Assembly: GCA_027366525.1 (NCBI GenBank)
Contig: DAHXKG010000008.1
Coordinates: 26,556-90,555 of the forward strand
DNA from: a candidate division FCPU426 bacterium
Lineage (GTDB): Bacteria > Oederibacteriota > Muellerivitia > Muellerivitales > DAHXKG01
Direction: 5' to 3'
Length of the DNA stretch: 64,000 bases
Shown: positions 1 to 21,483 of the stretch, in pieces
How positions within the stretch are numbered: the stretch's first letter is position 1
Layout of the letters: each line of letters opens with the position of its first letter
Notes under the pieces: generated by a model
The model's database searches: none
What the model was told of the DNA's origin: nothing
Seen by the model: the letters and a program-made list of their open reading frames with translations, nothing else
Program-made: the position numbers and the translations under genes

Positions 1-236
1 TCATTAAAAATTTGATAAAAGCACTGGGTGATGCAGAACAAAAAGTGCTACAACTTTATTATTTAGAAACATTAACGTTTAAAGAAATTGGTCAAGTTTT
101 AAAATTAACGGAATCGAGGGTTTGCCAAATTCATCATACGGCAATTTTCCGGATTCAATCGATGATTGAAAGGGGTAATTATTATGGTAGTGCTCAAAGA
201 TATGAACGGGTACATCACCATTACAACCGAGAGTGA
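1..236 (+). CDS. fliA: RNA polymerase sigma-28 factor FliA, 3' end (5' end lies upstream of the window)
   Basis: The frame is open from base 3 with no upstream stop. The translation LIKALGDAEQKVLQLYYLETLTFKEIGQVLKLTESRVCQIHHTAIFRIQ is a sigma-70 region 4 helix-turn-helix typical of FliA. The gene context is flagellar. Confidence 0.8.
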   Translation, partial: IKNLIKALGDAEQKVLQLYYLETLTFKEIGQVLKLTESRVCQIHHTAIFRIQSMIERGNYYGSAQRYERVHHHYNRE

Positions 237-1875
237 TGGTATTTATGTTACAATTTTTCCTCCGGTCGGTAAGGGGAAAATGGTCACTCTTGCTGACCTC
301 AAACAGGAATTGGAAAAATCCAATGTTGGATCTATTAACAATACAATTTTAAGTCAATTAGTCAAACAACAAAATGGTCGACCCCAAAAAATATCCAATA
401 TTACTGCATCGCGTCCAGAAGCGACTCAATGTTTTGTGGAATTGAGTGATGATGCAATGGTTGCCAAAATAACAATTATTCCGCCACAATCCGACACTGA
501 AAAATTTCAAACCATTGGTGATGTGCGAAACGCATTAACGCAACATCAAGTGGTTTTTGGAATTGATGAAACCAAAATGAGCGAACTAGCAGCTCGATTG
601 GAAGAAATGGCTTCGTCCAAAAATATGATTGAATCCGTTGAAATGGAAGTTGCATTTGGAATGCCTGTTAAAGATGGCGTGGATGCATCGTTAGAGTTTT
701 TATACAAAAAAGAGACGGAGGCGGCAGCTTCAGAAGCTACCCCAGAAGGACTTCCTGAAGATGATGAGGGCCGAATTGATTATCGTGCAGTTCATCAAAT
801 TGACAACGTAACCAAAGGAACGGTTTTAGCTAGAAAAATTCCCGCACAACCCGGTATTCCCGGAAAAACAGTTCGTGGAGAAACGATTGAACCTAAAGTG
901 GGAAAAGATATTGAAGTGATTGCAAGCAAGGGCGTCATTGTCTCTCCTGAAAATCCGTCAGAATGGATTGCCGACTCAGAAGGACAGGTAATTGTAAAAG
1001 ATAACAAAATTTCAGTTTTGGCACTTTATGAAATTCCAGGCGACGTTGACTTTTCAACGGGAAACATTGATTTCATTGGCACTGTGATTATTCGTGGCGA
1101 CGTGAAGGATGGGTTTAAAGTTTTTGCAGGCGAAGATCTCGTAATTAATGGTGTTGTAGAAGCTGCGGAACTGAAATGTGGAGGTCGCTTGACGATTGCA
1201 GGAGGGCTGAGTGGAGGGGACCGTGCTCAAGTGACCTGCGAACGGGATGCAACGATTAAATATGTTCGTAATGCAGTAGTTAAAGTTGGGGGAAATTTGA
1301 CGGTGAATCAAGCGATTATGCATAGTAAAGTTACGGTTGGAAATAAGGTGGTGGTCGCTGGTAAAAAAGGTGTCATTGTGGGCGGACAAGTGGTAGCCGG
1401 TATTGAGATCATAGCGGCCTCGATGGGATCTAATTTTGCAACTCCGACAGAAGTGATTGTGGGTGAAATGTTGGGGCTTCGCGAAGAACTTCAGCAAGCG
1501 GAAAATGAATTGAAATTGGCTGTCGAAAATTTGGAAAAAACTAAAAAAGGCATTGTTTTTTTAAAAGATCTTCAAGCTAAATTGGGTGGAACATTACCTC
1601 CAGATAAAAAGGAACTATTTACAAAACTTACTCGAGCTCAATTTAAATTAATGGCGGATACGAAAACATTAACAGAGAAAAAACAGAAAATTGAAAAACA
1701 AGAAGCGGATGGAGCGGAAGATCGTCGGAAAAGAACCCGCGTGGCTTGTCTGGGCATTATTCATACCGGTGTTAAGATTACCATTAATCGTGCATCAAGA
1801 CAAATCTCTGAAGAAATTAAATATTGTACTTTAACCGAAATAGATGGAGAAATTAAGGTAGGACCTTATAAATAA
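184..1875 (+). CDS. FapA-like flagellar assembly protein (DUF342), beta-helix repeats with a C-terminal coiled coil
   Basis: The ORF track gives 166..1875. An ATG at 184 is preceded by AGGGG seven nt upstream. G-rich beta-solenoid repeats are present (GNIDFIGTVIIRGDVKDGFKVFAGEDLVINGVV...). The position immediately after fliA matches FapA/DUF342 in other flagellar loci. Confidence 0.6.
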   Translation: MVVLKDMNGYITITTESDGIYVTIFPPVGKGKMVTLADLKQELEKSNVGSINNTILSQLVKQQNGRPQKISNITASRPEATQCFVELSDDAMVAKITIIPPQSDTEKFQTIGDVRNALTQHQVVFGIDETKMSELAARLEEMASSKNMIESVEMEVAFGMPVKDGVDASLEFLYKKETEAAASEATPEGLPEDDEGRIDYRAVHQIDNVTKGTVLARKIPAQPGIPGKTVRGETIEPKVGKDIEVIASKGVIVSPENPSEWIADSEGQVIVKDNKISVLALYEIPGDVDFSTGNIDFIGTVIIRGDVKDGFKVFAGEDLVINGVVEAAELKCGGRLTIAGGLSGGDRAQVTCERDATIKYVRNAVVKVGGNLTVNQAIMHSKVTVGNKVVVAGKKGVIVGGQVVAGIEIIAASMGSNFATPTEVIVGEMLGLREELQQAENELKLAVENLEKTKKGIVFLKDLQAKLGGTLPPDKKELFTKLTRAQFKLMADTKTLTEKKQKIEKQEADGAEDRRKRTRVACLGIIHTGVKITINRASRQISEEIKYCTLTEIDGEIKVGPYK

Positions 1876-1899
1876 ATAAGTTATTCGAGGATAATACGC

Positions 1900-2244
1900 A
1901 TGATCGGGTTTGATGGAAATTTTTTAGCCATGCAATCGGGGGCAACGACAACCGTGCAATCGGCCCTTCAAGCAGAGATGATAGCTCAACAAGTCCAGGC
2001 TGAACGACGTGGATTGGAAGAAGTCCGAAAATTGAAAGAGCAGGTTAATGATTTGAATGAGATACCGTCTCAAATGAGTACAGGACGCGTTGGAGATTCG
2101 GAACAGGATAATCAGCCAGCTCCAGAAGATCAATTTTTACGGTCTTCGCCCAAATCGCCGGATGAATCAGATGATCCAAAGATCTCTTCAAAAAATATAT
2201 CCAAGTTATCGGAGCCGATTCATCATATTGATTTGCGAGTGTAA
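1900..2244 (+). CDS. hypothetical acidic protein in the flagellar operon
   Basis: 114-aa ORF tightly spaced after the FapA-like gene. No recognisable motif. Confidence 0.4.
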   Translation: MIGFDGNFLAMQSGATTTVQSALQAEMIAQQVQAERRGLEEVRKLKEQVNDLNEIPSQMSTGRVGDSEQDNQPAPEDQFLRSSPKSPDESDDPKISSKNISKLSEPIHHIDLRV

Positions 2245-2247
2245 ACG

Positions 2248-2913
2248 ATGACGATTTTTATTTTCTTACAAGTTTTTTTTGATGCCATTTTCATTTTTGG
2301 ATTTTTAGTCTTGATTTATTTTATGATCCATCGTTCTGATAAAAAAGAAGAGACGGATCTCATCCAAAACTTAAAAATTCATGATGTGAAGGAAGATTTA
2401 AAAGAAATGGTAAATACCATGACAGAACTAGGCCAAAAAACCTCTAATGAGCTTCAAGAAAAAGTGGAGCAGGCTCAACAATGGATGCATGAATTGAATT
2501 TTTTTATGAGGAAAAAATCAATATCAACACGTGGAAGTGATGCCCCAAGTTTTAATCGAGGTCGAGAGATACATAAAAAAATTAAGACAGTTAAGCCTAA
2601 AAAACGTTTTCCAAAGAAGCCCAAGCCGGTGGCTACGACTGCCGTGGACGATAAGTTGAAAACTTTATCCACTTCGAAACCCATAGAAAAACCGTCCTCA
2701 TCGATTTCTTCCTTTACAAAACCTGGAAAAATAGCGTATGATTTTCCTAGAGTGGATATGCTGGGTATCCCAATTAAAACGATTGAAACCATTTATCGAT
2801 TAGCCGATGAAAAAAAAGAAGTATTTCTTATTGCTAAGTCAGTGGATTTGAGTGTGGCAGAAGTCCAATTGATTTTAAATTTACGCAGCGGACATTTTAC
2901 AATATCAAACTAA
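2248..2913 (+). CDS. hypothetical membrane-anchored protein (N-terminal TM, Lys/Pro-rich middle)
   Basis: 221-aa ORF starting 4 nt after the previous stop. Has a hydrophobic N-terminus (IFIFLQVFFDAIFIFGFLVLIYF) and a coiled-coil/Lys-rich region. Confidence 0.45.
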   Translation: MTIFIFLQVFFDAIFIFGFLVLIYFMIHRSDKKEETDLIQNLKIHDVKEDLKEMVNTMTELGQKTSNELQEKVEQAQQWMHELNFFMRKKSISTRGSDAPSFNRGREIHKKIKTVKPKKRFPKKPKPVATTAVDDKLKTLSTSKPIEKPSSSISSFTKPGKIAYDFPRVDMLGIPIKTIETIYRLADEKKEVFLIAKSVDLSVAEVQLILNLRSGHFTISN

Positions 2914-2975
2914 TCTACAGGAGTTTAAAGAGAATCATTTGTGTTAAAATTCATGAATAACGTTTTTAGCTTGGC

Positions 2976-3521
2976 GTGTATGAACATGAGTTTTTAAAAA
3001 ATTCAGGAAGGGATTATGTGATTACAACAAATGAAGCGAATGTGATATTAAAAAAATCGCAAGAACTCGCTAAAAGCTACTCAACTCCTGCAATGGATCG
3101 GCACGATAATCTGTCCCCGGATACCAAGTCGACAAAAATATTGCCGGGGTCGTTGATTGAGTCTATGTTTCTTCCTTTGGACTTTGGTGGGAAGAACGCA
3201 CATATAAAAATCGAAGTTTATGGAAGTCAACGGCATTCAAACTGGGCAGATCCGATTATTCAAGAAAAGGCTTTTTATCTTGTTATCACGACTAAAACGG
3301 AATATCAAGGCACTATTCAGTGGAGTATTTATTTGAAAGGGAATGATTTAGCATTGCAAGTGTACAGTAATCAAGCGAAAATGTCGGATCAAGTTCAACA
3401 AGTAGTTCAGACTGCTGAAATCGCTTTGCGTCAACAAGGATACCGTATACTATATCCAACAGTATTTTTAAAATATCCATTTCAAGTACCTAAAAAGTTT
3501 ATAGTGGAATTGAGAGGCTAA
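2976..3521 (+). CDS. hypothetical protein, flagellar-locus associated
   Basis: 181-aa ORF. Its stop lies 1 nt before the flhB-C-like gene, which suggests translational coupling. Confidence 0.4.
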   Translation: MYEHEFLKNSGRDYVITTNEANVILKKSQELAKSYSTPAMDRHDNLSPDTKSTKILPGSLIESMFLPLDFGGKNAHIKIEVYGSQRHSNWADPIIQEKAFYLVITTKTEYQGTIQWSIYLKGNDLALQVYSNQAKMSDQVQQVVQTAEIALRQQGYRILYPTVFLKYPFQVPKKFIVELRG

Positions 3522-3522
3522 A

Positions 3523-3834
3523 ATGCCATTTATTAGAAGCCGTTTTAACAATCGAGGTAACCGAAAAATGGCGATTGCTTTGACTTACAAACGTGATTCG
3601 ATGGGCGCGCCACAAGTGGTTGCCAAGGGACGCGGTGTGATGGCCGATCGAATTTTAGAACTGGCTCAACAGCATCATGTTCCGGTAAAACAAGATAAGT
3701 TTTTGATGGAAACGTTGGATCAAGTTGGCTTGGGACAGCAAATTCCCGCTGAACTTTATCAAGCGGTGGCAGAGGTTTTAGTGGCTGTTTATCGAACAGA
3801 ATCTGGTTTTAAGAAGCAGAATCCAGGACTCTAG
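3523..3834 (+). CDS. FlhB C-terminal domain-like protein (EscU/YscU family small homolog, YlqH-like)
   Basis: The segment MAIALTYKRDSMGAPQVVAKGRGVMADRILELAQQHHVPVKQDKFLMETL matches the FlhB C-terminal domain pattern (KAAALKYD...APVVVAKG.G..A..I...A.EH.IPI.ED..LAR.L). Confidence 0.7.
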   Translation: MPFIRSRFNNRGNRKMAIALTYKRDSMGAPQVVAKGRGVMADRILELAQQHHVPVKQDKFLMETLDQVGLGQQIPAELYQAVAEVLVAVYRTESGFKKQNPGL

Positions 3835-3917
3835 ATCGTTAAAATTTAAAAAGGATGAATTTAAACTTGGAGAGAACTTGTTATGGTGAAAAGATTTTCT
3901 TGGAAAGTAATTTTTTA

Positions 3918-6020
3918 ATGAAAAAAATTATTTGGAGTTTAAGTTTAGGGTTGTTGCTTGTGAGTTGTCTTATAAGCCGTGGGTATGCCCAAAATACCAA
4001 TTCACTTATTTTTGATCAACCCAATTCGTCGGGAATAGGTCCACGAGCAATGGGCATGGGGAATGCCTTCAGCGCGGTAGCCGATGATACCTCAGCAGTT
4101 TACTGGAATCCGGCAGGTTTAGTTCAAATTCCAGCATATGCACTCTCACTTTCAAGTGCTCCAATCTATTTCCAACAAAAGCTTAATGGGGTTCCGCTGT
4201 TTGGAGAACCATATTATGCGTCAATCCAATTTGTAGCTCCTATTTCACAAGAAAATACATTAGCGATTTCTTTGTTTAGAAATTTTCATCCTCAAATCGA
4301 TTTTTTTACTGGAAATACATCATTGTCGCTAGCTCAACAGGATGAGGCCAGCTATCTTTTAAATCCATCTTTTCAGGCAGATGAGTTGGTTTTATCATAC
4401 GCGGCTGATTTTGCGTCGTTCCCGGATTTTTCAATCGGTGTTAATGTTAAAAGTATTACCAATGATCGATATTACATAAGTAACTTCCCAATTAATGCAG
4501 CAAGTGAACCGGGCGTTTATAATGCTCTTCAAAATCCCATTCGTGTTCGAGGGTTTGGAGTTGATCTGGGGTTTTTATATCGAATTCCTTTAACGAAATA
4601 CACGCAAGAGCTTCGAGCTGCTGTGGTATTAAAAAACTTGGTTAGTCGTGTGGATTTTTTAAATGGATTAATTTTCAATAGTACTTCTGGTGTTGCTTTT
4701 AATATTGGTCCTGGATTTGAAACCCAAGTTCCACCAGAAGCTATTATTGGCGTTGCATATAAAAACAATGCGTTTTTTGGGATTCGCAATATTACAGATA
4801 TCGATTTTGATCAAATTTCTGATCCACGATATAACAGCAATAATAATAAATATATTCGTGTGGGAACAGAATTTTGGTTATTCCATGACATTCTTGGAAT
4901 TCGCGGTGGATACGAGACACTTTTAAGCACGCCAGGAACCTTAACCTTAGGGGCGAGTGTACGGGCTTTAAATGGTGATTTTGAGACCGACATTGCATAT
5001 TTGAAGCCAATTTCACCGAATGTTCAAACTCAACCCAATTCTCAAATTGCGACTTTAACGTCTAATGGCGTTAATTTTGAAGATTTTTATATTGGTCTTT
5101 CATATTACTTCGGGCAAGCTCCGGCTATCCCGCCACCGACCGTACATGCTTCAGTGTTTCCCCAAGCTTTTCAACCTTCGCAAGGTCAAACAGCTGCCTT
5201 TGCTTTAGATACTTCCGAAGGCATTCCTATAAAGAATTGGAATGTATTTATTTATAATTCACAGAATCAACTGGTTCGAAATATTGGGGCGCAAGGCAAT
5301 CCGCCTACAACGATTTTATGGGGTGGCGAAAACAATCAGTTCCAGCCCTTGCCGCCAGGGGTATATACATGGGCATTTCAAGTCCGAGATCGATTAAATC
5401 ACGTTGGTGCTACACGAATTCATTCAGTTGAAATTTTGCCACCACCTATATCTCCTGTTGCACCTAACCCCGCAAAATTGTATACTATGAGACAACAACA
5501 AGTTGCGCTGCTGAATCAAGAACGTCAACAACTATCCAATTTAGCGCAAAAGGAAATGCAAAAATTGCTAGCTGCAGCTACGCCAAACACAGCTCCTGCT
5601 TATGCCGGTCCGGTTTCTTATGTGACAAATGCAGCCGGAAATACAACAGTACCTAGTGCGGGACCGGTACCGGTACTAGGGTTTACTAATTTACCACCGC
5701 AACAAGTACTCAATGTGCATTTCCGGCCAACTGCTACGGGTCAAACGAATGTAGTTATTAATTATCAATCCCGACTCGATTATGTCCCTTATATTTACCA
5801 AGAAGCAGGACAAGTAATTCGATCGGCAGCGAAGTCGTTGGGCACTTCAACCATCAATCAAGTAATTACCCATGTTTATTATGGGAAGAATGAAATGACA
5901 ATTCAAACGCCTTCTGCTGTTGCTTTGGAATATGCTCACCGAGCTATTCGGTTGCAACAAACATTAAATCTGTCCACGATTGTTATTGATGGACAAAAGG
6001 TAGCTCCAAATGGGATTTAA
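3918..6020 (+). CDS. FadL/PorV-family outer-membrane beta-barrel protein with a C-terminal FlgD-Ig-like domain, embedded in the flagellar operon
   Basis: The ORF track gives 3855..6020. A likely start is the ATG at 3918 (MKKIIWSLSLGLLLVSCLISRGYAQ signal peptide). The N-terminal hatch motif GPRAMGMGNAFSAVADDTSAVYWNPAGL is FadL/PorV-like. Roughly aa 435-520 (ILWGGENNQFQPLPPGVYTWAFQVRD) resembles FlgD Ig-like / Por C-terminal sorting domain folds. Confidence 0.6.
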   Translation: MKKIIWSLSLGLLLVSCLISRGYAQNTNSLIFDQPNSSGIGPRAMGMGNAFSAVADDTSAVYWNPAGLVQIPAYALSLSSAPIYFQQKLNGVPLFGEPYYASIQFVAPISQENTLAISLFRNFHPQIDFFTGNTSLSLAQQDEASYLLNPSFQADELVLSYAADFASFPDFSIGVNVKSITNDRYYISNFPINAASEPGVYNALQNPIRVRGFGVDLGFLYRIPLTKYTQELRAAVVLKNLVSRVDFLNGLIFNSTSGVAFNIGPGFETQVPPEAIIGVAYKNNAFFGIRNITDIDFDQISDPRYNSNNNKYIRVGTEFWLFHDILGIRGGYETLLSTPGTLTLGASVRALNGDFETDIAYLKPISPNVQTQPNSQIATLTSNGVNFEDFYIGLSYYFGQAPAIPPPTVHASVFPQAFQPSQGQTAAFALDTSEGIPIKNWNVFIYNSQNQLVRNIGAQGNPPTTILWGGENNQFQPLPPGVYTWAFQVRDRLNHVGATRIHSVEILPPPISPVAPNPAKLYTMRQQQVALLNQERQQLSNLAQKEMQKLLAAATPNTAPAYAGPVSYVTNAAGNTTVPSAGPVPVLGFTNLPPQQVLNVHFRPTATGQTNVVINYQSRLDYVPYIYQEAGQVIRSAAKSLGTSTINQVITHVYYGKNEMTIQTPSAVALEYAHRAIRLQQTLNLSTIVIDGQKVAPNGI

Positions 6021-7587
6021 AAAACTAATTCTTTTGACTGCATTAGTGCTTTTAACGGGAACGGCCTGGGGAAGTTATTTTACCCTTGGGGGTGTATCCG
6101 GATTTGGGGCTAGACCTATTGGAATGGGTGAAGCGTATGCGAGTGTGGCCGATGGCCCAAGTGCTATTTTTTATAACCCGGCAGGACTAGTTCAGGTACT
6201 TCGACCCACTATTTCAGGCATGGGAGCTGCACTTTTAAATGGAAAAGAATTTACGGGCGACTTGGAATATGTTCAGCCTTTTGGTGATCAGATGGCATGG
6301 GCGATTGCAAGCACGGAATTGTATCACACAGAAGGGGCTTTAACCGTCGAGCGAGTTTATTACGTGACTTTAGCAACGCCGTTATCCATCAATAAGTCAT
6401 TTTCATTTGGTGTTAATTTTAAATATTACACGGTGAGTTCTTCAGTTCTCCCTGATAGTGCAGGCGATGCATTTGGAATTGATTTAGGCTTTTTATATCA
6501 TATCCCCATTCCTAATCCAACTTATGGAAAGCAAATCAACTTGGGTTTGAGTGTTCAAAACTTGGATACAGTGCTCACCCAATCCAACGGAGCGAGCCAA
6601 CAACTTCCCACAGACGTTCATGTGGGATTAAGCTATCAAATTAATAATTCCTTAGAAGCTGCGTTCGAAACCGAATCGTTTAAAGATCCGGATACAAACG
6701 GAAAAGTAACCATCCTTCATGCCGGCATTGAGGCTTGGTTCTTTCAAGACCATTTGGGTTTAAGAACGGGTTATGATGGATTCCAAACATTAAATGGTGA
6801 ATTTACCGCTGGTATTAGTTACCGGGGGTCAAGCTGGGGAATTGACTATGCCTATATTGGGCATCCGCAGTTCTTGGGGTCATCACATCGTATTTCTGCC
6901 GAATGGCGTTTTGGAAGAAGTTTCTTGGGGAATTCAGAAACATTTGTTCCTCAAGATGTCGTGGCTTATGTTCGCGGCAACATTATTACCATTCAATGGA
7001 CAGGGTCGCGAAGTATTAACTTAGAAGGTTATAATGTTTATTTTACCAAAACGTCAGGTTCAAACTATGTCAAAATCAATCAAAAACCGATTCAAGAAAA
7101 TTACTATGCTGTTCGAGGTCTTGAAAAAAACACTACATATTATTTTGTTGTAACTTCGGTTATGAATACAAAGCCGCCGATGGAAAGCCAATATTCACGT
7201 GAGGTTCGAGCGATCACAACTTCGGCTCCAGTAGCGCCTGTTTTGGCTAAAGCGCAAGTAAGCCAAGAGGGGGCCATCGATGTGGCTCGGCAATTTGACA
7301 TGGTTTCCTTTGGAAGTCCAGCCAAGCAGGGCTTAAAAGGATATAACATTTATATGTCAGAGGTTCAGGGTGGGCGATTTATTAAGGTGAATGGGTTGCC
7401 AATTGGGAATGTGCCAACCTATGTTGTTCGTCACCTATCCATTGGACAAACCTATTATTTCCGCTTTACTTCAGTGGGGACCAATGGGGTGGAAAGTGCA
7501 CCTTCGAAAGAAGTTTCGGCGATTGCATTGCCTTATGCGACGGTGATTCAATCAACGCTTACATTGCCTAAAAAATCAAAACCTTAA
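6010..7587 (+). CDS. FadL/PorV-family outer-membrane beta-barrel protein with two C-terminal fibronectin type III-like domains
   Basis: Signal peptide present. The motif GARPIGMGEAYASVADGPSAIFYNPAGL is a paralog of the upstream gene's hatch motif. There are two FN3-like repeats (YNVYFTKTSGSNYVKIN...TTYYFVVTSV and YNIYMSEVQGGRFIKVN...TYYFRFTSV). The start overlaps the upstream gene and the stop lies 15 nt before flgF. Confidence 0.6.
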   Translation: MGFKKLILLTALVLLTGTAWGSYFTLGGVSGFGARPIGMGEAYASVADGPSAIFYNPAGLVQVLRPTISGMGAALLNGKEFTGDLEYVQPFGDQMAWAIASTELYHTEGALTVERVYYVTLATPLSINKSFSFGVNFKYYTVSSSVLPDSAGDAFGIDLGFLYHIPIPNPTYGKQINLGLSVQNLDTVLTQSNGASQQLPTDVHVGLSYQINNSLEAAFETESFKDPDTNGKVTILHAGIEAWFFQDHLGLRTGYDGFQTLNGEFTAGISYRGSSWGIDYAYIGHPQFLGSSHRISAEWRFGRSFLGNSETFVPQDVVAYVRGNIITIQWTGSRSINLEGYNVYFTKTSGSNYVKINQKPIQENYYAVRGLEKNTTYYFVVTSVMNTKPPMESQYSREVRAITTSAPVAPVLAKAQVSQEGAIDVARQFDMVSFGSPAKQGLKGYNIYMSEVQGGRFIKVNGLPIGNVPTYVVRHLSIGQTYYFRFTSVGTNGVESAPSKEVSAIALPYATVIQSTLTLPKKSKP

Positions 7588-7602
7588 ATTCAGGAGAAGT
7601 AG

Positions 7603-8394
7603 ATGCCAAGTGGACTTTATATAGCAGCATCAGGAATGAATGCAACCATTCAACAACAGAATGTTATTGCTAATAATTTGGCTAATCTTAATACGACAGG
7701 TTTCAAAGGAAGCAGCGCCGTTGATGTAGCATTTCCAACATATCTTTATACGCGATTAAACGATCAATATCTTAAATCGCTAAATGGCGTGCAAAATTTG
7801 ATACAACCCATTGGCTTGATGGGTGGCGGTGTGGACACTGAAGAAGTTGCAACTGATTTTGCGCAAGGCTCCATGCTTCAAACTAAAGCGCCGTTGGACT
7901 TTGCAATTAATGGGAAAGGCTTTTTTACCATTCAAGGACCCAATGGTCATTTATTGTATACCCGAGATGGAAGTTTTAACTTAAATTCCAATGGGGAACT
8001 CGTTACCAAAGATGGATATCCAGTTTTGGGACATGCGGGTACGATTTATATTAATAGCAATGGACATAAAATTGTTGTGGATTCTCAAGGAGATATTTCG
8101 GTTGATAATCAACCGATTGATCAATTGCAAATTTCAAATATCTCCAATTTAAATCGATTGGTGAAATTAGGTCATTCGCTTTATGAAGTACCTCAAGGTG
8201 ATTTTGTTAATTTTGAACCCAACCACGTTCAGGTTGAGCAAGGCTATTTGGAACAATCCAATGTGAATGGGATTCAAGAAATGGTTTCAATGATTGCGGC
8301 TTATCGTTCATATGAAACTAATGCAAAAGTTGTTTCCATGTATGATGAAATTATGGGTGATGCGGCCACGCAGGTGGGCGATATCAATGCTTGA
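7603..8394 (+). CDS. flgF: flagellar basal-body rod protein FlgF
   Basis: N-terminus SGLYIAASGMNATIQQQNVIANNLANLNTTGFK matches the rod-protein family. C-terminal rod motif QGYLEQSNVN...EMVSMIAAYRSYE is present. Confidence 0.85.
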   Translation: MPSGLYIAASGMNATIQQQNVIANNLANLNTTGFKGSSAVDVAFPTYLYTRLNDQYLKSLNGVQNLIQPIGLMGGGVDTEEVATDFAQGSMLQTKAPLDFAINGKGFFTIQGPNGHLLYTRDGSFNLNSNGELVTKDGYPVLGHAGTIYINSNGHKIVVDSQGDISVDNQPIDQLQISNISNLNRLVKLGHSLYEVPQGDFVNFEPNHVQVEQGYLEQSNVNGIQEMVSMIAAYRSYETNAKVVSMYDEIMGDAATQVGDINA

Positions 8395-8531
8395 AATACG
8401 AGGTGGAAGTCAGTAGAATTTTAATGTGTTTTAAAACGGCTGGACTGCTAGGCAGAAGCCGTTCTTCGTAATCGACTAATAACGAGGAAACACAAGTGGT
8501 TGTAGTTAAGCTTTGCTGAAAAGGAGGATTT

Positions 8532-9323
8532 ATGCAAGCGCTTTACACTGCCGCAACCGGCATGAATGCACAGCAGATGAATATTGATACGATTTCGAAC
8601 AATCTCGCCAACGAAAATACGGATGGGTTTAAGGAACAGCGCGTAGAATTTCAGGATTTGATGTATATCAATGTCAAAAAACCTGGAACGCCAACTACTC
8701 CAGATACAGTTCGTCCTGTTGGTATCCAAATTGGCGAAGGAGTCAAACCCGTTGCCACTCAGCGTATTTTTACAGAGGGAAGCATTCAAAATACAAATAA
8801 TCCGCTGGATCTCCTTATTCAAGGAAGCGGGTTTTTCCAACTTACAGACCCCAACGGCAATATCGTTTATACGCGCGATGGAGCATTTGAGCAAGACGCG
8901 AATGGAAATATCGTTAATGCCGAAGGATATAAACTTAATCCTCCTGTCCAAATTCCAGCGAATACGACGTCCATTTCAATTAACTCAGCGGGTGCGGTTT
9001 ATGTGCAAACCGTTGGATCAACTCAACAGCAACAAGTGGGACAAATTGAATTGGCTCAATTCGTTAATCCAGATGGTCTGGTGGCATTGGGTAACAATGA
9101 CTTTACTCCATCGGCAGCTTCAGGCAACCCAGAAGTGGGAATCCCAGGTCAAAATGGGTTTCCAACAATTCAAGAAGGGTCTTTAGAGTTGTCAAATGTC
9201 AACACTGTTGAGCAAATGGTCAATTTGATAGTGGCTCAAGAAGCGTATGACATGAACGCCAAAGCAGTTCAGACTGCAGATACTATGTTGAGTACGGTTG
9301 CCCAGCTGCCCATATTACCGTGA
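8532..9323 (+). CDS. flgG: flagellar distal rod protein FlgG
   Basis: N-terminus MQALYTAATGMNAQQMNIDTISNNLAN and C-terminus EGSLELSNVNTVEQMVNLIVAQEAYDMNAKAV are the canonical FlgG ends. Confidence 0.9.
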   Translation: MQALYTAATGMNAQQMNIDTISNNLANENTDGFKEQRVEFQDLMYINVKKPGTPTTPDTVRPVGIQIGEGVKPVATQRIFTEGSIQNTNNPLDLLIQGSGFFQLTDPNGNIVYTRDGAFEQDANGNIVNAEGYKLNPPVQIPANTTSISINSAGAVYVQTVGSTQQQQVGQIELAQFVNPDGLVALGNNDFTPSAASGNPEVGIPGQNGFPTIQEGSLELSNVNTVEQMVNLIVAQEAYDMNAKAVQTADTMLSTVAQLPILP

Positions 9324-9338
9324 TGTATTGAGAAATTT

Positions 9339-10316
9339 ATGGGAAAATTTTTTGGAATTTTTGGGATGCTGGGTTGGTTTCTCTTTTATGGAGTAAGTAA
9401 TAGTTGGGCGCAACAAAGCCCAGTTTTAATTTTGCTTCCTAAATTTGCAACGACAGTTGGTCCGAGAATTTTTTTGGGTGAAATTGCAAAAATAAAAGGG
9501 AAAAATACGACCTTAGTAGAACGAATTCGAGGGCTTGAAATAGGCAAAGCGGCCTTCCAAGGGAAACATCGACTGGTTTCGCGACAACAGGTAGAGGAAG
9601 TTTTGAATCAAATGGGATTTTTGGGGGGGCAATTTCAAGTTGTTGGAACGCAAACGCAAGTTCTGACAAAATCCCAACGATTTTCTCCAGATCAGATTCT
9701 TCCTCAATTAAGGAAGTTTGTTTTATCCAAAACCGGTATTGCTTCAAATAATTTGAAAGTGAGCCTTCCTTATCCTGAAAAATCTATTTCAGTGCCTTAT
9801 GGAACAATTGGGGTTCAATTTACGCCGCCAGTTTCAGGATTTTATGATGGAACAGTTTTAGTGGTTGTCAAGCTTCAAGTCGATGGACGAGAATTTAAAA
9901 AGATACCGTTGTGGGTGCGGGTCATGCAAGAAAAACGGGTGGTGGTTGCTTGCCGGAGAATTCCTCCAGGTTCCACCTTAACCCAACAGGATGTTCAAAT
10001 TCAAAAAATGGATGACGAAAAAATTCCACAGCAATCGCTGAGCAAATTAACGGGTGTTATAGGGAAAAAAACCACCGTTTTATTATTGCCAGGACAAGTG
10101 TTGACGATTGATTCGATATTTGATCCTCCCATCATTGTTCCTGGTGAAATCGTTCAAGCCGAAGTGAGTAGTGCTGGAGTTCGGTTGTATGCAACAGTGA
10201 AAGCTTTAGCAGGTGGGAAAATCGGGGATTCTATTTATGTTGAAAATACAGAATCTCATCGTGTTTTTCATGCAACAATTTTAAGTCCGCATTTAGTGAC
10301 GGCAAGAGTCCCGTAG
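9339..10316 (+). CDS. flgA: flagellar P-ring formation chaperone FlgA (SAF domain)
   Basis: Signal peptide present. A C-terminal SAF-like region (GEIVQAEVSSAGVRLYATVKALAGGKIGDSIYVENTESHRVFHATI) is present. Position between flgG and flgH. Confidence 0.75.
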   Translation: MGKFFGIFGMLGWFLFYGVSNSWAQQSPVLILLPKFATTVGPRIFLGEIAKIKGKNTTLVERIRGLEIGKAAFQGKHRLVSRQQVEEVLNQMGFLGGQFQVVGTQTQVLTKSQRFSPDQILPQLRKFVLSKTGIASNNLKVSLPYPEKSISVPYGTIGVQFTPPVSGFYDGTVLVVVKLQVDGREFKKIPLWVRVMQEKRVVVACRRIPPGSTLTQQDVQIQKMDDEKIPQQSLSKLTGVIGKKTTVLLLPGQVLTIDSIFDPPIIVPGEIVQAEVSSAGVRLYATVKALAGGKIGDSIYVENTESHRVFHATILSPHLVTARVP

Positions 10317-10329
10317 AGTAGGAGATAAA

Positions 10330-10944
10330 ATGAAAAAAAATATAGTTTTAATCGTATTAATACTGGCTTGGGGGCCGGGTTTGCTATTGGCCAATTCATT
10401 ATACCCCCAGTATCCTCAGGCAGGCGATGGGTCAATTTATACAGAAGTTCGGGCACATCGCGTGGGAGATTTAATTACCATTTTAATTGAAGAAACCAAT
10501 GCGGCAACGAATGCGGCAAGTAGTAATACTCAAAAAAATGCCAATGTTGCTGTGGGAGCGGGGTTTGGAATCTGGGGTCAAAGTAATTTTATACCTACGA
10601 ATACGAATAATGAATTAGGGGTAGGGGGGGAAGATTATAATGCAGGGCAGGGCACATCCAATCAAAGTACGACGGTTACAGGTGAAATGACGGCTAAAAT
10701 TACTGAAGTTTTGCCTGATGGAAATTTTTTAATTCACGGGACACGCGATGTAGAGGTAAATAAAGATATTCAACTTATGCAGGTTACGGGGGAAATTCGC
10801 CCTCAAGATATTGGCGCCGATAACACGATTCTGTCTTCAAGAATTGCCAATGCGAGAATTATTATTACTGGAAAAGGTCCGGATGCTGAAGTGGCACAAC
10901 CGGGAATACTGACCCGTATTTTCAGCTGGTTAGGTTTGTTTTAA
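10330..10944 (+). CDS. flgH: flagellar L-ring protein FlgH
   Basis: Signal peptide present. Motifs LYTEVRAHRVGDLITILIEE and GEIRPQDIGADNTILSSRIANARI match FlgH. Confidence 0.85.
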   Translation: MKKNIVLIVLILAWGPGLLLANSLYPQYPQAGDGSIYTEVRAHRVGDLITILIEETNAATNAASSNTQKNANVAVGAGFGIWGQSNFIPTNTNNELGVGGEDYNAGQGTSNQSTTVTGEMTAKITEVLPDGNFLIHGTRDVEVNKDIQLMQVTGEIRPQDIGADNTILSSRIANARIIITGKGPDAEVAQPGILTRIFSWLGLF

Positions 10945-12074
10945 TGCTAAGGAGCCGCGTATCTATGAAAAAAATTTTGTTTCTAATGATCAGTGTCGTG
11001 ATAATGACGGGGTTAACGAGAGCTCGTGCGGCTCAAGTTAGATTGAGTACAATTGCTCAGATTAAAGGAGCTCAAGATAATCAGTTGGTGGGTTATGGAT
11101 TGGTTGTTGGGTTACAACGTACAGGAGATACGCAATTAATGTATCCAACCTTAGAAAGCATTAGTAATATGCTTTCGCGATTTGGAGTAACGGTTAGTCC
11201 TGAAGAATTAAAAACTGAAAATGTTGCATCGGTTATGGTGACAGCACTTCTCCCTCCCATGTTGCATACCGGAACAAAAATTGATGTTACGGTTTCTGCG
11301 ATTGGGGATGCCATGAGCTTAAAGGGAGGAACGCTTTTAATGACGCCTTTAGAAGGACCTGATGGAGTGGTGTATGCGGTAGCTCAAGGATCGCTTTTAA
11401 CTTCAGGGTACAGCCACGACTCAAATGAATTTCCCATTGTTCAGTTTAATGAAACTAACGTAGGACGGATCCCTGATGGTGGTATTGTAGTGCGCTCAGT
11501 GCCAGCTTCTTTTGATGTAAACAACCAAATTGCGGTGTTATTGGACCAACCCGGATTTAGTCAAGCCTCCATTGTCGAGCAATCGATCAATAGACAATTT
11601 GGAGCTAATACGGCTAAAGCAGTGGATGGGGATGAAATAGATGTACAAGTTCCATATAATTATCAGAATAACATTGTTGATTTTATTGCGGCTGTTAAAA
11701 ATATTCCGGTTTTTACGGACTCTCCAGCTAACCGGGTGGTTGTTGATGAACGCACGGGGACCATTGTTATTGGTGCCGATGTTCAGGTCGATCCAGTGGC
11801 GATTGCTCATGGCAATCTTCGACTGGTTATTCAAAAAACGACACAACTTACGCATACCGCTTATTTTGGTTATAATCAACTTTCTAATACAACCACATTG
11901 AAAGTAACCAATACGGGGAAAAAAGGCAATTTAATTGTTTTGCCGGCCGGAACGAATATTGTTAATATTGTCAATGCCATTAATGCGGTGGGGGGAACTC
12001 CCCAGGATGTTATTGCTATTTTAGAGGCGATTAAAGCTGCCGGAGCACTTCATGCTCAACTTAAAATTATTTAA
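10944..12074 (+). CDS. flgI: flagellar P-ring protein FlgI
   Basis: RLSTIAQIKGAQDNQLVGYGLVVGLQRTGD is the canonical FlgI N-terminus. The start overlaps the flgH stop. Confidence 0.9.
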   Translation: MLRSRVSMKKILFLMISVVIMTGLTRARAAQVRLSTIAQIKGAQDNQLVGYGLVVGLQRTGDTQLMYPTLESISNMLSRFGVTVSPEELKTENVASVMVTALLPPMLHTGTKIDVTVSAIGDAMSLKGGTLLMTPLEGPDGVVYAVAQGSLLTSGYSHDSNEFPIVQFNETNVGRIPDGGIVVRSVPASFDVNNQIAVLLDQPGFSQASIVEQSINRQFGANTAKAVDGDEIDVQVPYNYQNNIVDFIAAVKNIPVFTDSPANRVVVDERTGTIVIGADVQVDPVAIAHGNLRLVIQKTTQLTHTAYFGYNQLSNTTTLKVTNTGKKGNLIVLPAGTNIVNIVNAINAVGGTPQDVIAILEAIKAAGALHAQLKII

Positions 12075-12090
12075 GCGTTAAGGAGATGAA

Positions 12091-12558
12091 ATGAATTCCG
12101 CTTTGAATGCAATTTCTTCTGTGGTGACCGGTGGACTTCCGGTATGGATGAGCGCGGCTTCGCCAACAGAGCTAAAGGGTATGTTTAATGCCAATCCTCA
12201 GCTATTAGCTTCGGCTGAATCCTCATTGACTTCTTCACCCGTGGCTCCCCAGCTTTTAAATAGCAAGGGACTTCCAGCTTTTCAGGCGCTGAGTCCTTCT
12301 CAACATTATTCAGATCAAGAACTCAGAAAAGTTTCACGGGAGTTTGAAGCCGTTTTTATTCGAATGATGTTTAAAGTGATGCGTCAGTCGGTTCCGCCCA
12401 ATCCTTTATTCGGGAAGCAATTGAGTATGAGTTTTTTCAATTCAATGTATGATTCTGATCTTTCCACCGAATTGTCTCACGATAGCGGGTTTGGAATTTC
12501 AAAAATGATTTATTCGCAATTAAAAACCAATGTTGAGAATCAGCAGAAAATTGTATGA
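12091..12558 (+). CDS. flgJ: FlgJ-like rod-binding protein (rod-binding domain only, no muramidase domain)
   Basis: FEAVFIRMMFKVMRQS is the Rod_binding motif. Only 155 aa long. Position after flgI. Confidence 0.75.
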   Translation: MNSALNAISSVVTGGLPVWMSAASPTELKGMFNANPQLLASAESSLTSSPVAPQLLNSKGLPAFQALSPSQHYSDQELRKVSREFEAVFIRMMFKVMRQSVPPNPLFGKQLSMSFFNSMYDSDLSTELSHDSGFGISKMIYSQLKTNVENQQKIV

Positions 12559-12998
12559 GTTGGAAGAATTGTTCTCGCTGTGGAAAAGCTTATAATTGGA
12601 TTCCCGGCAATCGTGAACTGTGTACAGCATGTATTAAGCTTGAAGAAGATAATTTTAAAAAGGTTTTTGATTTTTTAACTTCGAATCCTGCCGCAACAGC
12701 ACAAAAAATTTCCCAAGGTACCGGTGTTGAACTCAAAGATATTTATCGGTTTGTTCGGGAAAATCGACTTCGGCTGGTTAAAACCGATGCACTCCTTCGT
12801 TGTGAAAGTTGTGGCGTACCAATTTCAAAGGGTAAACTATGTGACAAGTGTATGAAAAACTTGGAAGATGAAATAAAAAAAGAACAAGACAAATATAGAA
12901 AAAATCATAATATTCCAAGTAATTCTGATAGAAATTATCGAATTCGTCGAAATAACCAAACCGGTAGCATTGAACGAGAGCGAAGAAAAAATAAGTAA
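12555..12998 (+). CDS. zinc-ribbon flagellar operon protein (YvyF-like)
   Basis: Two Cys-x2-Cys pairs (CSRCG...CTAC and CESCG...CDKC). It sits directly upstream of flgM-flgN-flgK, as yvyF does in Bacillus. The start overlaps flgJ by 4 nt. Confidence 0.55.
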   Translation: MSWKNCSRCGKAYNWIPGNRELCTACIKLEEDNFKKVFDFLTSNPAATAQKISQGTGVELKDIYRFVRENRLRLVKTDALLRCESCGVPISKGKLCDKCMKNLEDEIKKEQDKYRKNHNIPSNSDRNYRIRRNNQTGSIERERRKNK

Positions 12999-13074
12999 AT
13001 TGCACTAATTTTATTAAAGTTTTGAATATTCAAGGCGTTAGAGCTTGTAAGAAATTAATAATTGAGGTGCACAT

Positions 13075-13368
13075 ATGCGTATTAATGGGTTTCAAAATAT
13101 TCCTTCCGTTTTACAAACATTTGAAACTAAAGAACTCTCACAAGCTTCTACCCCGGCGTCGTCATCCAACACATCGGTCACATTAAGTCTATTTGCCGAA
13201 ACATTGAAGCAACTCCAGCGAGAAGCTGTTCAACAGTCAACAACCCACCAAACTAAAATTCAGCAAATGGCTCATCAAATTGAAACTGGAACCTTTCAAA
13301 TGCAATACGACAAGCTGGCCCAGCAATTGGATCAATTTCAATTATTTAATTGGGAGAATCCAGCATGA
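13075..13368 (+). CDS. flgM: anti-sigma-28 factor FlgM
   Basis: 97-aa protein. The C-terminus KIQQMAHQIETGTFQMQYDKLAQQL matches the FlgM sigma-28-binding region. Position upstream of flgN-flgK. Confidence 0.75.
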   Translation: MRINGFQNIPSVLQTFETKELSQASTPASSSNTSVTLSLFAETLKQLQREAVQQSTTHQTKIQQMAHQIETGTFQMQYDKLAQQLDQFQLFNWENPA

Positions 13369-13859
13369 CTGAGGCAAGCCACCGCCTATTTATGATTTTG
13401 AACGAGGAAAGGGAGCATTATGAGCTTTTATGTTTGTTGGCTGAAGAACAGAAGAAAATTTTAATTGCTGGACAAGTTGAAAAATTAACAGCCAATGTTC
13501 AATTGCAAGAAAAAGAAATTTTCAAAATCACACCATTAGCTCAAGAACGGAAAGAAATTTTGGATCGAATCGCAAAGCAACTTAAAAAAAGTAATTTTGC
13601 ACTTGAAAACTGCATGACGGATGAATGGGAAGAATCTTCATCGCAATTGAAGGAAGCCATACGAATGCTTGTTCAGCAGGTCCGACGTCTAGAAGTTTTG
13701 AATCGCGGCAATGAAAAATTGTTAAAAAATGCATTAGGGTATGTCCAGTTTACTTTGAAAGTGCTAAATGCCACTTCTTCAAAAGATCCAGTTCAATTGA
13801 AGGAAGCTTTACCGGCCTTTTCAAAGCCGTCTTCTAAATTTGTGAATCAAGTCGTTTAA
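13350..13859 (+). CDS. flgN: flagellar export chaperone FlgN
   Basis: 169-aa coiled-coil acidic protein between flgM and flgK. Confidence 0.65.
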   Translation: MGESSMTEASHRLFMILNEEREHYELLCLLAEEQKKILIAGQVEKLTANVQLQEKEIFKITPLAQERKEILDRIAKQLKKSNFALENCMTDEWEESSSQLKEAIRMLVQQVRRLEVLNRGNEKLLKNALGYVQFTLKVLNATSSKDPVQLKEALPAFSKPSSKFVNQVV

Positions 13860-13869
13860 GGAGGCTCAC

Positions 13870-19653: not shown

Positions 19654-21483
19654 ATGTCTAATGAAGCGATGTTTAGTGCGGTTTCAGGCCTGCAAGCAGA
19701 CAGCACATGGCTGGATGTTATCGGAAATAATATTTCCAATCAAAATACCGTTGGTTATAAAGCCAGTCGTTTGGAATTTGCAAGCCAGCTCAGTCAAACC
19801 TTAAATGCGGGTAGTGGTCCAGATCCCGGACAAAATTTAGGTGGTGTGAACCCGATGCAAGTTGGATTGGGTACTCGGGTTGAATCGATTCAAACTCTTT
19901 TTACGGAAGGCCCATTACAGCAGACGGGTATTTCTACGGATATTGCGATTGTGGGAAATGGTTTTATTGTTGCCAAGCAAGGATCGCAAACCGTATACAC
20001 GCGAGCTGGAAATTTAACATTTGATGGAAATGGAAATTTGGTTACGGCAAATGGTGCCATTGTTCAAGGCTACACTGCGTCGGAACAATTTACACAACAA
20101 ACGATTAACGCGGGTGCGGCGCCTCTAGTAGTTACATATTCTTCAGAAACTTTAACGACGAATGGAGTGCCTCAAAACATTCAAATCAATCAAAGCTTAA
20201 CCATTCCAGCTAAAGCAACATCCCAGGTTAATTTCACCGGTAACCTTGATTCATTTCAACAAGCAGATCAGCCAGGTGGCGTGTTGAATCTTGCGGTGGG
20301 TGGTGTGGATCAGCTTCCCGTTGCCGCTGCTACTTTCGCAGCAACAGCCAATCTTGAAGCTAACCCTAATAATGCAGCGGATACCGTCTTGCATCAAGAT
20401 GGAAATTACGCATTAAACGGTGCTGCAGCAGGCGCACAACAAGCCAATCCTTTAGTAACGGGTGGTGGTGTGAGTATTGCTGCTGCAAACGCTGATGCAA
20501 ACTATGTTTGGAATCAGAATCCACCGGTACCACCTGCCAAAACGGTTGTGACGACGATTTATAATTCAGTTGGAGACCCAATTCAAGTTACAACGCTATT
20601 TTATCAAGTTAATGATTTGGGACAGGCTGGAATTAACACTCCAACATCGGCTCAACCAAGTCAGGTTGCTTATGCGTGGTATTCTTTTAATACAACCGGA
20701 GGAGTACAACCCTATACCGGAGCTACGACAGCAACTCAAACTCCAAATTTATTGGGTGGATCAGGTATTATTGAAGGGTACAGCAGAAATACAGGAAATC
20801 AGTATGAAGGGGATTTAATATATTTTAACACGGATGGTTCGTTGGCATCCATGGGAGGAGTCGATGTAACTACGGGAACTCAAGTGGCCCCAACACTTTA
20901 TATCCCTCCGGCTAATCCAGGGATTCCAGCCGCTTCTCCGTTACCCACTAACGGCGCTCAAATTGTCGCTGCACAGCTTAACTTTGGGACAGCTGGAACA
21001 CTGGGTTTTGGTCAAAGAAATGGTCTTTTCAGTGATGCAGAAGGCAGCTATCAAGTAGTCAATGGGGTGAACACGTATGTACCGAGCAGTACAGCGTATG
21101 TGTCATCACAGAATGGTTATGCCGATGGTACCTTGCAGAGTGTGAGTTTTGACCAAACAGGAACGATTCAGGGTGCGTTTAGCAATGGACAAACGGTAGC
21201 ACTGGGGCAAATTGTTATGGCCAATTTTGCCAATCCGGATGGATTGAACAATATTGGTGGTACAGATTTCACGCCATCTTCCAATTCGGGACCAGAGTAT
21301 GTTGGATTGGCTGGTACCAATGGGTTGGGGACGGTTCAAGGAAGCACATTGGAAATGTCTAATGTGGACTTGACAACGGAACTATCCAACATGATTATTG
21401 CTCAAAATGCATTTGATGCAAATGCAAGAGTTGTTACGGTAGTGAGTCAAGAAGATCAGACTCTAACTCAATTGGGCCTGTAA
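19654..21483 (+). CDS. flgE: flagellar hook protein FlgE (copy 1)
   Basis: N-terminus FSAVSGLQADSTWLDVIGNNISNQNTVGYKASR and C-terminus GSTLEMSNVDLTTELSNMIIAQNAFDANARVVT. 609 aa with no Cys. Confidence 0.9.
   Translation: MSNEAMFSAVSGLQADSTWLDVIGNNISNQNTVGYKASRLEFASQLSQTLNAGSGPDPGQNLGGVNPMQVGLGTRVESIQTLFTEGPLQQTGISTDIAIVGNGFIVAKQGSQTVYTRAGNLTFDGNGNLVTANGAIVQGYTASEQFTQQTINAGAAPLVVTYSSETLTTNGVPQNIQINQSLTIPAKATSQVNFTGNLDSFQQADQPGGVLNLAVGGVDQLPVAAATFAATANLEANPNNAADTVLHQDGNYALNGAAAGAQQANPLVTGGGVSIAAANADANYVWNQNPPVPPAKTVVTTIYNSVGDPIQVTTLFYQVNDLGQAGINTPTSAQPSQVAYAWYSFNTTGGVQPYTGATTATQTPNLLGGSGIIEGYSRNTGNQYEGDLIYFNTDGSLASMGGVDVTTGTQVAPTLYIPPANPGIPAASPLPTNGAQIVAAQLNFGTAGTLGFGQRNGLFSDAEGSYQVVNGVNTYVPSSTAYVSSQNGYADGTLQSVSFDQTGTIQGAFSNGQTVALGQIVMANFANPDGLNNIGGTDFTPSSNSGPEYVGLAGTNGLGTVQGSTLEMSNVDLTTELSNMIIAQNAFDANARVVTVVSQEDQTLTQLGL

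Follow-up and report, generated by a model that had tools for sequence, protein, structure and literature searches.

Two FadL/PorV-like barrel proteins encoded in a flagellar rod and ring operon: a candidate outer-membrane flagellar accessory in Goldbacteria/FCPU426

Why are two genes for predicted outer-membrane beta-barrels found among genes for the flagellar rod and rings? This question is raised by a stretch of 64,000 nucleotides (nt), hereafter the window, from a bacterium of candidate division FCPU426 (assembly GCA_027366525.1, contig DAHXKG010000008.1, positions 26,556 to 90,555, forward strand). Goldbacteria (FCPU426) have been described as cellulolytic and flagellated (PMC7031533). 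The two genes, here called A and B, encode FadL/PorV-type barrels extended by Ig-like or FN3 domains and lie between a short flhB-like gene and flgF. Their context, fold and relatives suggest, with about an even chance, that in Goldbacteria/FCPU426 A and B serve the flagellar basal body as an accessory of its L/P-ring region that is anchored in the outer membrane and probably heteromeric. The argument starts from the following genes, given in window coordinates with sizes in amino acids (aa) of the open reading frame (ORF):

3523..3834, + strand: gene encoding the C-terminal domain of FlhB only (Pfam Bac_export_2 positions 261-335 of 335, E 1.7e-21; TIGR00789 flhB_rel)
3855..6020, + strand: gene A, barrel and Ig-like domain; ORF of 721 aa, with a probable start at ATG 3918 that gives 700 aa
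6010..7587, + strand: gene B, barrel and two FN3 domains; ORF of 525 aa
7603..12558, + strand: flgF, flgG, flgA, flgH, flgI and flgJ (rod-binding), genes of the distal rod and L/P-ring that always follow B (Pfam, NCBIfam and synteny)
7603-8394, + strand: flgF, the first of these

Position of the pair in the flagellar operon

Both ORFs exist as initially annotated, and the junctions between the FlhB-C-like gene, A, B and flgF are overlapping or 15 nt long, as had also been stated. The FlhB-C-like gene stops at 3834 and the 5' end of A comes next; the stop codon of A (TAA, 6018-6020) overlaps the start of B (ATG, 6010) by 11 nt; B stops at 7587 and is followed by AGGAG and then by the ATG of flgF at 7603. 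A generic promoter and terminator scan of positions 1-14000, whose overall counts did not differ from those of shuffled sequence, gave no terminator-like site or hairpin between 3834 and 7603.

The homologues of A and B are all metagenomic and are annotated as 'hypothetical' or, occasionally, as 'PorV/PorQ family protein'. For B, at least 85 clusters of full-length homologues share its architecture (33-63% identity); for A, the number is about 68. Furthermore, a scan of one genome per GTDB species gave 49 loci with full-length relatives of B. These are labelled as candidate division FCPU426, Goldbacteria/Goldiibacteriota or Firestonebacteria, apart from a few evidently mislabelled metagenome-assembled genomes (MAGs). 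Comparison of the window proteins with the 49 loci by tblastn showed the order A-B-flgF-flgG-(flgA)-flgH-flgI-flgJ in every locus that is long enough, across two deep clades. In clade 1, identity is 57-62% for B and 46-52% for A, and FapA, two unassigned genes and the FlhB-C-like gene are kept upstream. In clade 2, identity falls to 35-40% for B and 22-28% for A, and the block from FapA to the FlhB-C-like gene is lost upstream, so that the latter stands immediately 5' of A in clade 1 only. The clade 2 upstream genes, assigned with Pfam in locus L035, are unrelated housekeeping genes (a radical-SAM/HhH protein and DUF4130); in this locus, they are followed by a hairpin and by a gap of about 210 nt before A. 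Moreover, exact look-up placed two more divergent homologues (P0086 and P0189) at the same position. The pair is thus found directly upstream of flgF in ~48 related species-level genomes (MAGs), and this co-linear, tightly coupled placement across divergent genomes makes A and B members of the flagellar operon.

The junctions are also conserved. In clade 1, the two barrel genes share 11 nt, whereas 9-15 nt separate them in clade 2. The gap between B and flgF ranges from -4 to 78 nt in 47 loci; in the window, no boundary signal lies between these two genes. Five loci (L014, L015, L016, L021 and L068) gave irregular A/B or B/flgF boundaries when processed by script, for instance an apparent read-through of B in L021 and, in L068 from nanopore data, split flgF, flgG and flgH; assembly frameshifts, not biology, are the probable cause.

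In about 12 of 15 clade 2 loci, a conserved element lies upstream of A (L035 5774-5811; equivalents in L025-L028, L031, L038, L045, L046 and L049); it consists of an A-tract, then TTGACA, 17 nt of spacer and TGnTAAATT. Judged by its letters, this motif is sigma-70-type promoter-like; nothing convincing was found for sigma-54 or sigma-28 consensus sequences upstream of A in 15 clade 2 loci or in the window. Since the upstream genes are unrelated and a promoter-like motif precedes A, the pair would constitute the first genes of the flgFGAHIJ (distal-rod and L/P-ring) operon in clade 2. A second conserved block, about TTGCAAC..TTTTTACATATTG, is present in the clade 2 5' leader.

Translational coupling and a strictly conserved operon position are therefore supported directly here. 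Since gene order was kept through divergence while the flanking context was replaced and coupling was retained, A and B would be expected to act with flagellar proteins.

Barrels, hatches and C-terminal domains

Structure prediction with AlphaFold2 (AF2), profile searches and inspection divide the two proteins as follows:

3918..3992, + strand: predicted signal peptide of A, MKKIIWSLSLGLLLVSCLISRGYA then Q (by inspection)
4032..4124, + strand: N-terminal hatch motif of A, GIGPRAMGMGNAFSAVADDTSAVYWNPAGL; N64, A66, G67 and L68 invariant
4137..5111, + strand: 14-stranded beta-barrel of A (model residues 74-398, numbered from Met22)
5142..5435, + strand: Ig-like beta-sandwich (FlgD_ig-like) of A (model residues 409-506; AF2 confidence score, pLDDT, about 88-90)
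5469..5705, + strand: single long helix (518-551, 34 residues) and Pro/Ala/Thr-rich linker (552-596, ~45 residues, low confidence) of A (AF2 secondary structure and pLDDT; alignment)
5706..6017, + strand: orphan C-terminal alpha/beta domain of A (597-700; AF2)
6010..6072, + strand: predicted signal peptide of B, MGFKKLILLTALVLLTGTAWG then S (by inspection)
6091..6195, + strand: hatch motif of B, GVSGFGARPIGMGEAYASVADGPSAIFYNPAGLVQ; G28, G31, G33, G38, M39, G40, A47, N56, A58, G59 and Q62 invariant
6208..6912, + strand: compact 14-stranded barrel of B (residues 67-301), ending ...AEWRFG (AF2)
6952..7215, + strand: FN3 domain 1 of B (residues 315-402; Pfam fn3 E 6e-10; PDB profile matches; AF2)
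7270..7524, + strand: FN3 domain 2 of B (residues 421-505)

The FadL/PorV assignment, first made by eye, is borne out by profile search. The NCBIfam model PorV_fam (NF033709) matches residues 61-384 of A (71.8 bits, E 7e-20) and residues 33-299 of B (88.5 bits, E 6e-25); both scores lie under the curated cut-off of 90 bits, though far beyond chance. On these scores, A and B are best described as divergent relatives of the NF033709 PorV/PorQ family and not as members as curated. Nor do they appear to be PorV, PorQ or PorV2 in the strict sense: the equivalog models for these proteins (NF033710, NF033711 and NF052325) give 24-48 bits against cut-offs of 250, 220 and 325, with 25-33 bits on PorV proper. 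The Pfam FadL family (PF03349, Toluene_X) is not reached either (14.5-18.1 bits against a gathering threshold of 29.7). PDB profile searches with full-length A and B gave FN3/Ig matches only and no barrel match. The two barrels are paralogous to each other (hhalign probability 100%, E 1e-51, 28% identity).

The AF2 models, built from homologue alignments, have mean pLDDT values of 71.5 and 71.1 and a predicted template modelling score (pTM) of 0.5. They agree with the initial view of FadL/PorV barrels: B has 14 long strands (67-301), and for A our own reading of the strands listed by DSSP also gives 14 (74-398). In structural comparison, PorV ranks first for both proteins, the fold also fits FadL/TodX, and Foldseek agrees; the structural ranking then drops clearly to OmpG-type barrels (15.6 for A, 18.9 for B). 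The 14-stranded barrel, the top similarity to FadL/PorV and a hatch with an N-P-A motif together place A and B in the FadL/PorV superfamily.

The hatch reads GIGPRAMGMGNAFSAVADDTSAVYWNPAGL in A and GFGARPIGMGEAYASVADGPSAIFYNPAGL in B, with WNPAGL and YNPAGL as respective cores, and its N-P-A-G(-L) core is invariant in the 13 B and 17 A homologues aligned. The hatch signature given in the initial annotation is thus real as a motif in both genes, but the composite string represents a consensus and is not reproduced exactly by either gene. The motif corresponds to the 'NPA' of the FadL hatch, for which the mutants N33A, P34A and delta-NPA are deposited (PDB 2r4n, 2r4l and 2r4o). The hatch of A also aligns weakly to the N-terminus of PorV (6h3i_F).

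Signal peptides, judged by inspection, are present on both proteins as claimed. In A, the signal peptide is well formed only from Met22 (ATG 3918), with GGAAAG 10 nt upstream, and the first 21 residues of the 721-aa call have no counterpart among homologues. Therefore, A is probably 700 aa long and starts at ATG 3918, the database gene call (3855) being probably 63 nt too early. ORF-based starts of A in clade 2 loci likewise fall within the promoter-like motif. The signal peptide of A contains LVSC, and A was considered as a lipoprotein; this was rejected, since the Cys is not conserved among homologues and is thus not a lipobox.

Beyond the barrel, A carries an Ig-like domain, as proposed. 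It is sub-threshold in Pfam FlgD_ig (20.6-23.8 bits against 27); the L035 orthologue passes with 33.1 bits, and the model shows a beta-sandwich at 409-506. The label FlgD_ig is not in itself evidence for a flagellar function, since the same family is matched in non-flagellar PorV-like/OmpA fusion proteins. The C-terminal domain of A, modelled with the topology b-b-a-b-b-a-a-b (pLDDT 76-91 over 597-690, mean ~85), has no sequence match in Pfam or PDB, and a profile search of 1.84 billion representative proteins found it in only 30 of them. In the full-length matches (657-772 aa) it occupies the extreme C-terminus, as in A; the remaining matches are mostly short fragments, and four weak ones are longer or repetitive proteins matched internally. 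By these searches, it appears to be an orphan domain specific to the protein family of A.

The two FN3-like domains reported for B are backed by Pfam fn3 (39.6 bits) and by a PDB profile match that spans residues ~305-510 and covers both. When the alignment is mapped on the AF2 model of B, the loops predicted to be extracellular have 4-16 residues only and contain the two large indels by which the clades differ. Furthermore, the hatch and the periplasmic turns P90-F91, G173-K174 and W243-F244-F245 are invariant. Since the predicted surface loops are very short, the indels between clades fall in loops predicted to be extracellular, and the hatch and periplasmic turns do not vary, the model of B, which is of moderate confidence, recalls an anchor in the membrane, with its periplasmic face conserved, more than a surface receptor.

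On which side of the membrane do the added domains lie? In an even-stranded barrel of the FadL/PorV family, both barrel ends face the periplasm. Moreover, three relatives (P0112, P0114 and P0096) consist of a PorV-like barrel followed by CHU_C, FlgD_ig or CarboxypepD_reg Ig-like domains and by a C-terminal OmpA peptidoglycan-binding domain; since the OmpA domain is necessarily periplasmic, they place the C-terminal tails of A and B in the periplasm. The FN3, Ig, helix and orphan-domain tails are therefore most likely periplasmic. Thus, of the two locations initially left open for the extra domains, periplasmic or extracellular, the first is retained and the second abandoned.

These relatives come from other uncultured lineages and have no known flagellar link. 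They share with A an N-terminal PorV-like barrel, Ig-like domains and a C-terminal globular periplasmic domain; they end in OmpA, whereas A ends in the orphan domain after a long helix and a linker. Since this layout matches that of relatives whose C-terminal domain binds peptidoglycan, the comparison suggests that the orphan domain could be a periplasmic attachment module, with the P-ring or the peptidoglycan as plausible targets. Other relatives combine TPR repeats with a barrel (P0191 and P0119); they were considered as PflA/B-like flagellar proteins and rejected, their neighbourhoods not being flagellar. Fold, domain architecture and paralogy of A and B are supported directly by these results.

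Possible functions of the pair

The accessory proposed above would work as follows. A and B would be produced alongside the proteins of the distal rod and the L/P-ring and exported through Sec; the beta-barrel assembly machinery (BAM) would insert them as 14-stranded FadL-fold barrels, each plugged by its conserved N-terminal hatch. Each chain would leave its last strand on the periplasmic side, and the FN3 domains of B and the Ig-like domain, helix, linker and orphan domain of A would hang beneath the outer membrane. These tails would contact each other as well as the L/P-ring, the peptidoglycan or the distal rod, and the bushing and the surrounding outer membrane would be stabilised or positioned as a result. 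We infer the periplasmic orientation, the formation of an A-B complex and any contact with the flagellum; by analogy and not by homology, such a pair may be compared with the H-ring, basal-disk and FapH-ring proteins. A more specific arrangement, which we put forward tentatively as one possibility, is that A and B, probably as a heteromer, make a beta-barrel collar in the outer membrane around the L-ring, while their FN3/Ig/coiled-coil tails build a cage in the periplasm by which the outer membrane is connected with the P-ring or the peptidoglycan. The lineage-specific outer-membrane flagellar component of the initial annotation thus survives the synteny, profile and boundary checks, and still derives from genomic context.

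Four points weigh against an accessory of this kind. First, confidence in the AF2 models is only moderate, and it is poor in the hatch regions (pLDDT below 50). Second, the genome scan used two peptide patterns of B, so that flagellated relatives without A-B, or non-flagellar copies without the patterns, would escape it. Third, the fully conserved hatch and NPA motif would equally suit a working FadL-type channel. Fourth, the MAG JANLXT01 has the canonical flagellar pair (L033) and also, outside flagellar loci, another B-like gene (29% identical to B; barrel with two FN3 domains):

L051 23-2406, contig JANLXT010000106: second pair of JANLXT01, an ORF ending in a FlgD_ig domain and overlapped by the B-like gene

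This second pair is followed by lysS, lolC/E-like and lolD-like genes. By its sequence, the combination of a barrel with two FN3 domains is therefore not exclusively flagellar.

The last two points also bear on the alternative that survives best, namely that A and B are ordinary outer-membrane proteins (FadL-type channels or general tethers between outer membrane and periplasm) whose position in the operon reflects convenience of co-expression or inherited order. The hatch is typical of transporters, its NPA motif gives the FadL mutant PDB entries their names, and barrel-Ig-OmpA and TPR-barrel relatives occur in non-flagellar contexts. However, gene order persists at protein identities as low as 22-40%, with the upstream neighbourhood replaced, the genes overlap or have very short gaps in 47 loci, the promoter-like motif precedes A and does not lie between B and flgF, and the full-length B orthologues found all adjoin flgF, with the exception of the one paralogue. 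Hence, we consider this explanation unlikely.

If the conserved hatch does mark a channel, and since the fold fits FadL/TodX, A and B could be FadL-type lipid channels at the flagellar site, which would clear or import phospholipids or fatty acids that are out of place, or otherwise keep the lipid asymmetry of the outer membrane where the rotating L-ring disturbs the bilayer, while their periplasmic domains would merely hold them beside the motor. The FapH ring of H. pylori has been proposed to guard the outer-membrane barrier, and a mutation of a FadL homologue is noted in the same work (PMC12472139). The Toluene_X scores far below threshold (14-18 bits against 29.7) and the barrel of B, much more compact than that of FadL, make such a role improbable.

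The last alternative involves two further genes at the far end of the flagellar cluster, which had been described initially as PorV/PorQ-like paralogues and indeed both pass the NF033709 cut-off; they are 26% identical to each other:

25191-26153, + strand: barrel-only PorV/PorQ-family paralogue 1 (PorV_fam 128 bits, above 90; PorQ 97 bits)
26207-27154, + strand: barrel-only PorV/PorQ-family paralogue 2 (PorV_fam 130 bits, above 90)

[quoted passage not shown] These bona fide paralogues and the PorZ-like end leave a small opening for A and B as PorV/PorQ-like shuttles or anchors of a T9SS-like sorting system, co-regulated with flagella, that would bind cargo by its C-terminal domain and attach it to the cell surface; PorV also tops the structural matches, and the Ig-like domain of A resembles the CHU_C and FlgD_ig families of T9SS cargo. 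We hold this to be very improbable, given equivalog scores of 24-48 bits against 220-325, the failure to detect SprA/Sov, PorU, PorK-N and GldK-N among the scanned window ORFs of at least 100 aa, excerpts of the literature that describe T9SS as specific to Bacteroidota or the FCB group, and Ig/FN3 domains placed after the barrel on the presumed periplasmic side, a poor fit to a receptor for surface cargo. On the same scores and gene search, the coupling to a PorV-like secretion shuttle suggested in the initial annotation finds no support.

The remaining cluster and comparison with known systems

Positions 1-27154 of the window form, on the + strand, a single long flagellar cluster that ends at a tRNA-Phe gene. 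Besides the genes already given, it includes:

166-1875, + strand: FapA gene, start of the cluster
12555-12998, + strand: YvyF-like gene (TIGR03826, 'flagellar region protein'), between flgJ and flgM
19654-21483, + strand: flgE (first copy)

Downstream of flgJ, the order is YvyF-like gene, flgM, flgN, flgK, fliK, flgD, a 'Flagellar_put' gene and flgE; downstream of flgE come an NHL-repeat gene, the two genes without family match, the two barrel-only PorV/PorQ-family genes and the tRNA-Phe gene. The YvyF-like gene has a zinc-ribbon-like motif and scores 107.9 bits on TIGR03826, below the cut-off of 124. FlgK (13870-16056, +; 728 aa) and FliK (16078-18672, +; 864 aa) are unusually long. The interval from FapA to the FlhB-C-like gene (1900-3521, +) holds three genes of 114, 221 and 181 aa that have no family assignment. 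One of them, the 221-aa gene, whose product has a weak SpiroCoCo coiled-coil match, is detectable (25-32% identity) in every clade 1 locus spanning the region, and the 181-aa gene (26-39% identity) in all of these except L019; both are absent from clade 2. These unassigned genes may be further lineage-specific flagellar genes.

Elsewhere in the window, a second FlgE-like hook gene (57345-59225, +), whose 626-aa product includes a FlgE D2 domain, is found ~36 kb away from the first flgE, among unrelated neighbours (msrA, a SET-domain gene and a transaldolase gene). A GH5 cellulase is encoded at 35553-37364 (+), consistent with the cellulolytic lifestyle reported for Goldbacteria (PMC7031533).

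Compared with characterized FadL-fold proteins, A and B stand apart in several respects. PorV (PDB 6h3i chain F and 8gl6 chain F) has no C-terminal Ig, FN3 or coiled-coil extension, unlike A and B, which fall just under the subfamily cut-off, score about ten times too low for the equivalog and are found in a flagellar context, with T9SS genes not found nearby. From the FadL/TodX/TbuX channels (PDB 1t16, 3brz and 3bry), they differ by Toluene_X scores well below threshold, by the much more compact barrel of B, by their C-terminal periplasmic domains and by the lack of fatty-acid or aromatic catabolism genes nearby. Identity to the BamG FadL-fold barrels of the Bacteroidota BAM (PDB 9n2d chain B, 9hjm chain F and 9hj3 chain F) is 12-15% only; these belong to a different machine and phylum, and no BAM genes lie near A and B. 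Nevertheless, among PDB entries there are large outer-membrane machines in which a FadL-fold barrel serves as a structural subunit, namely the T9SS translocon with PorV and the Bacteroidota BAM with BamG-type barrels, and these set a precedent.

In its proposed role, the pair resembles the H-ring and T-ring of Vibrio (FlgO/FlgP/FlgT and MotX/MotY), the basal disk of Campylobacter (FlgP/FlgQ and PflA/PflB) and the FapH ring of Helicobacter, all being lineage-specific periplasmic or outer-membrane scaffolds around the L/P-ring whose genes are linked to flagellar genes. Such lineage-specific additions (H-ring, basal disk, cage and FapH ring) are the main examples of a conserved nanomachine gaining parts. 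The OmpA-type C-terminus of the non-flagellar relatives of A recalls MotY. Nevertheless, no homology of A, B or the C-terminal domain of A to the FlgO/FlgP/FlgT, MotY, PflA/PflB or FapH families was found in Pfam and NCBIfam searches at E up to 10, in which the HMMER filters drop most matches above E of about 0.1. To our knowledge, the known additions to the motor near the outer membrane are all lipoproteins or soluble periplasmic proteins and not integral beta-barrels, and the flagella of candidate phylum Goldbacteria/FCPU426 have never been imaged. For instance, the FapH ring, proposed to protect the outer-membrane barrier during rotation, is not an integral beta-barrel (PMC12472139).

A search of the papers accessible here gave nothing linking PorV or FadL-type barrels to flagella (basal body, L-ring or motor) and no description of a flagellar accessory for FCPU426/Goldbacteria, which a 2026 preprint on ancestral flagellar genes mentions only for a high loss of canonical genes. 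On present genomic evidence, A-B is thus a candidate for a lineage-specific outer-membrane flagellar accessory and represents a putative divergent PorV/FadL subfamily with new domain fusions. Two 'hypothetical proteins' of Goldbacteria/FCPU426 thereby gain a concrete name and a target; the proposed accessory would give an extra density in and beneath the outer membrane around the L-ring. If the collar arrangement is true, A-B would be the first case of an integral outer-membrane beta-barrel as a component of the flagellar motor, and an integral FadL-fold pair with periplasmic scaffolding domains would be a new building principle for the motor. After PorV (T9SS) and BamG (Bacteroidota BAM), the FadL fold would then have been recruited independently for a third time as a structural subunit of an envelope machine, which would extend the emerging theme of FadL-type barrels as adaptor subunits of outer-membrane machines.

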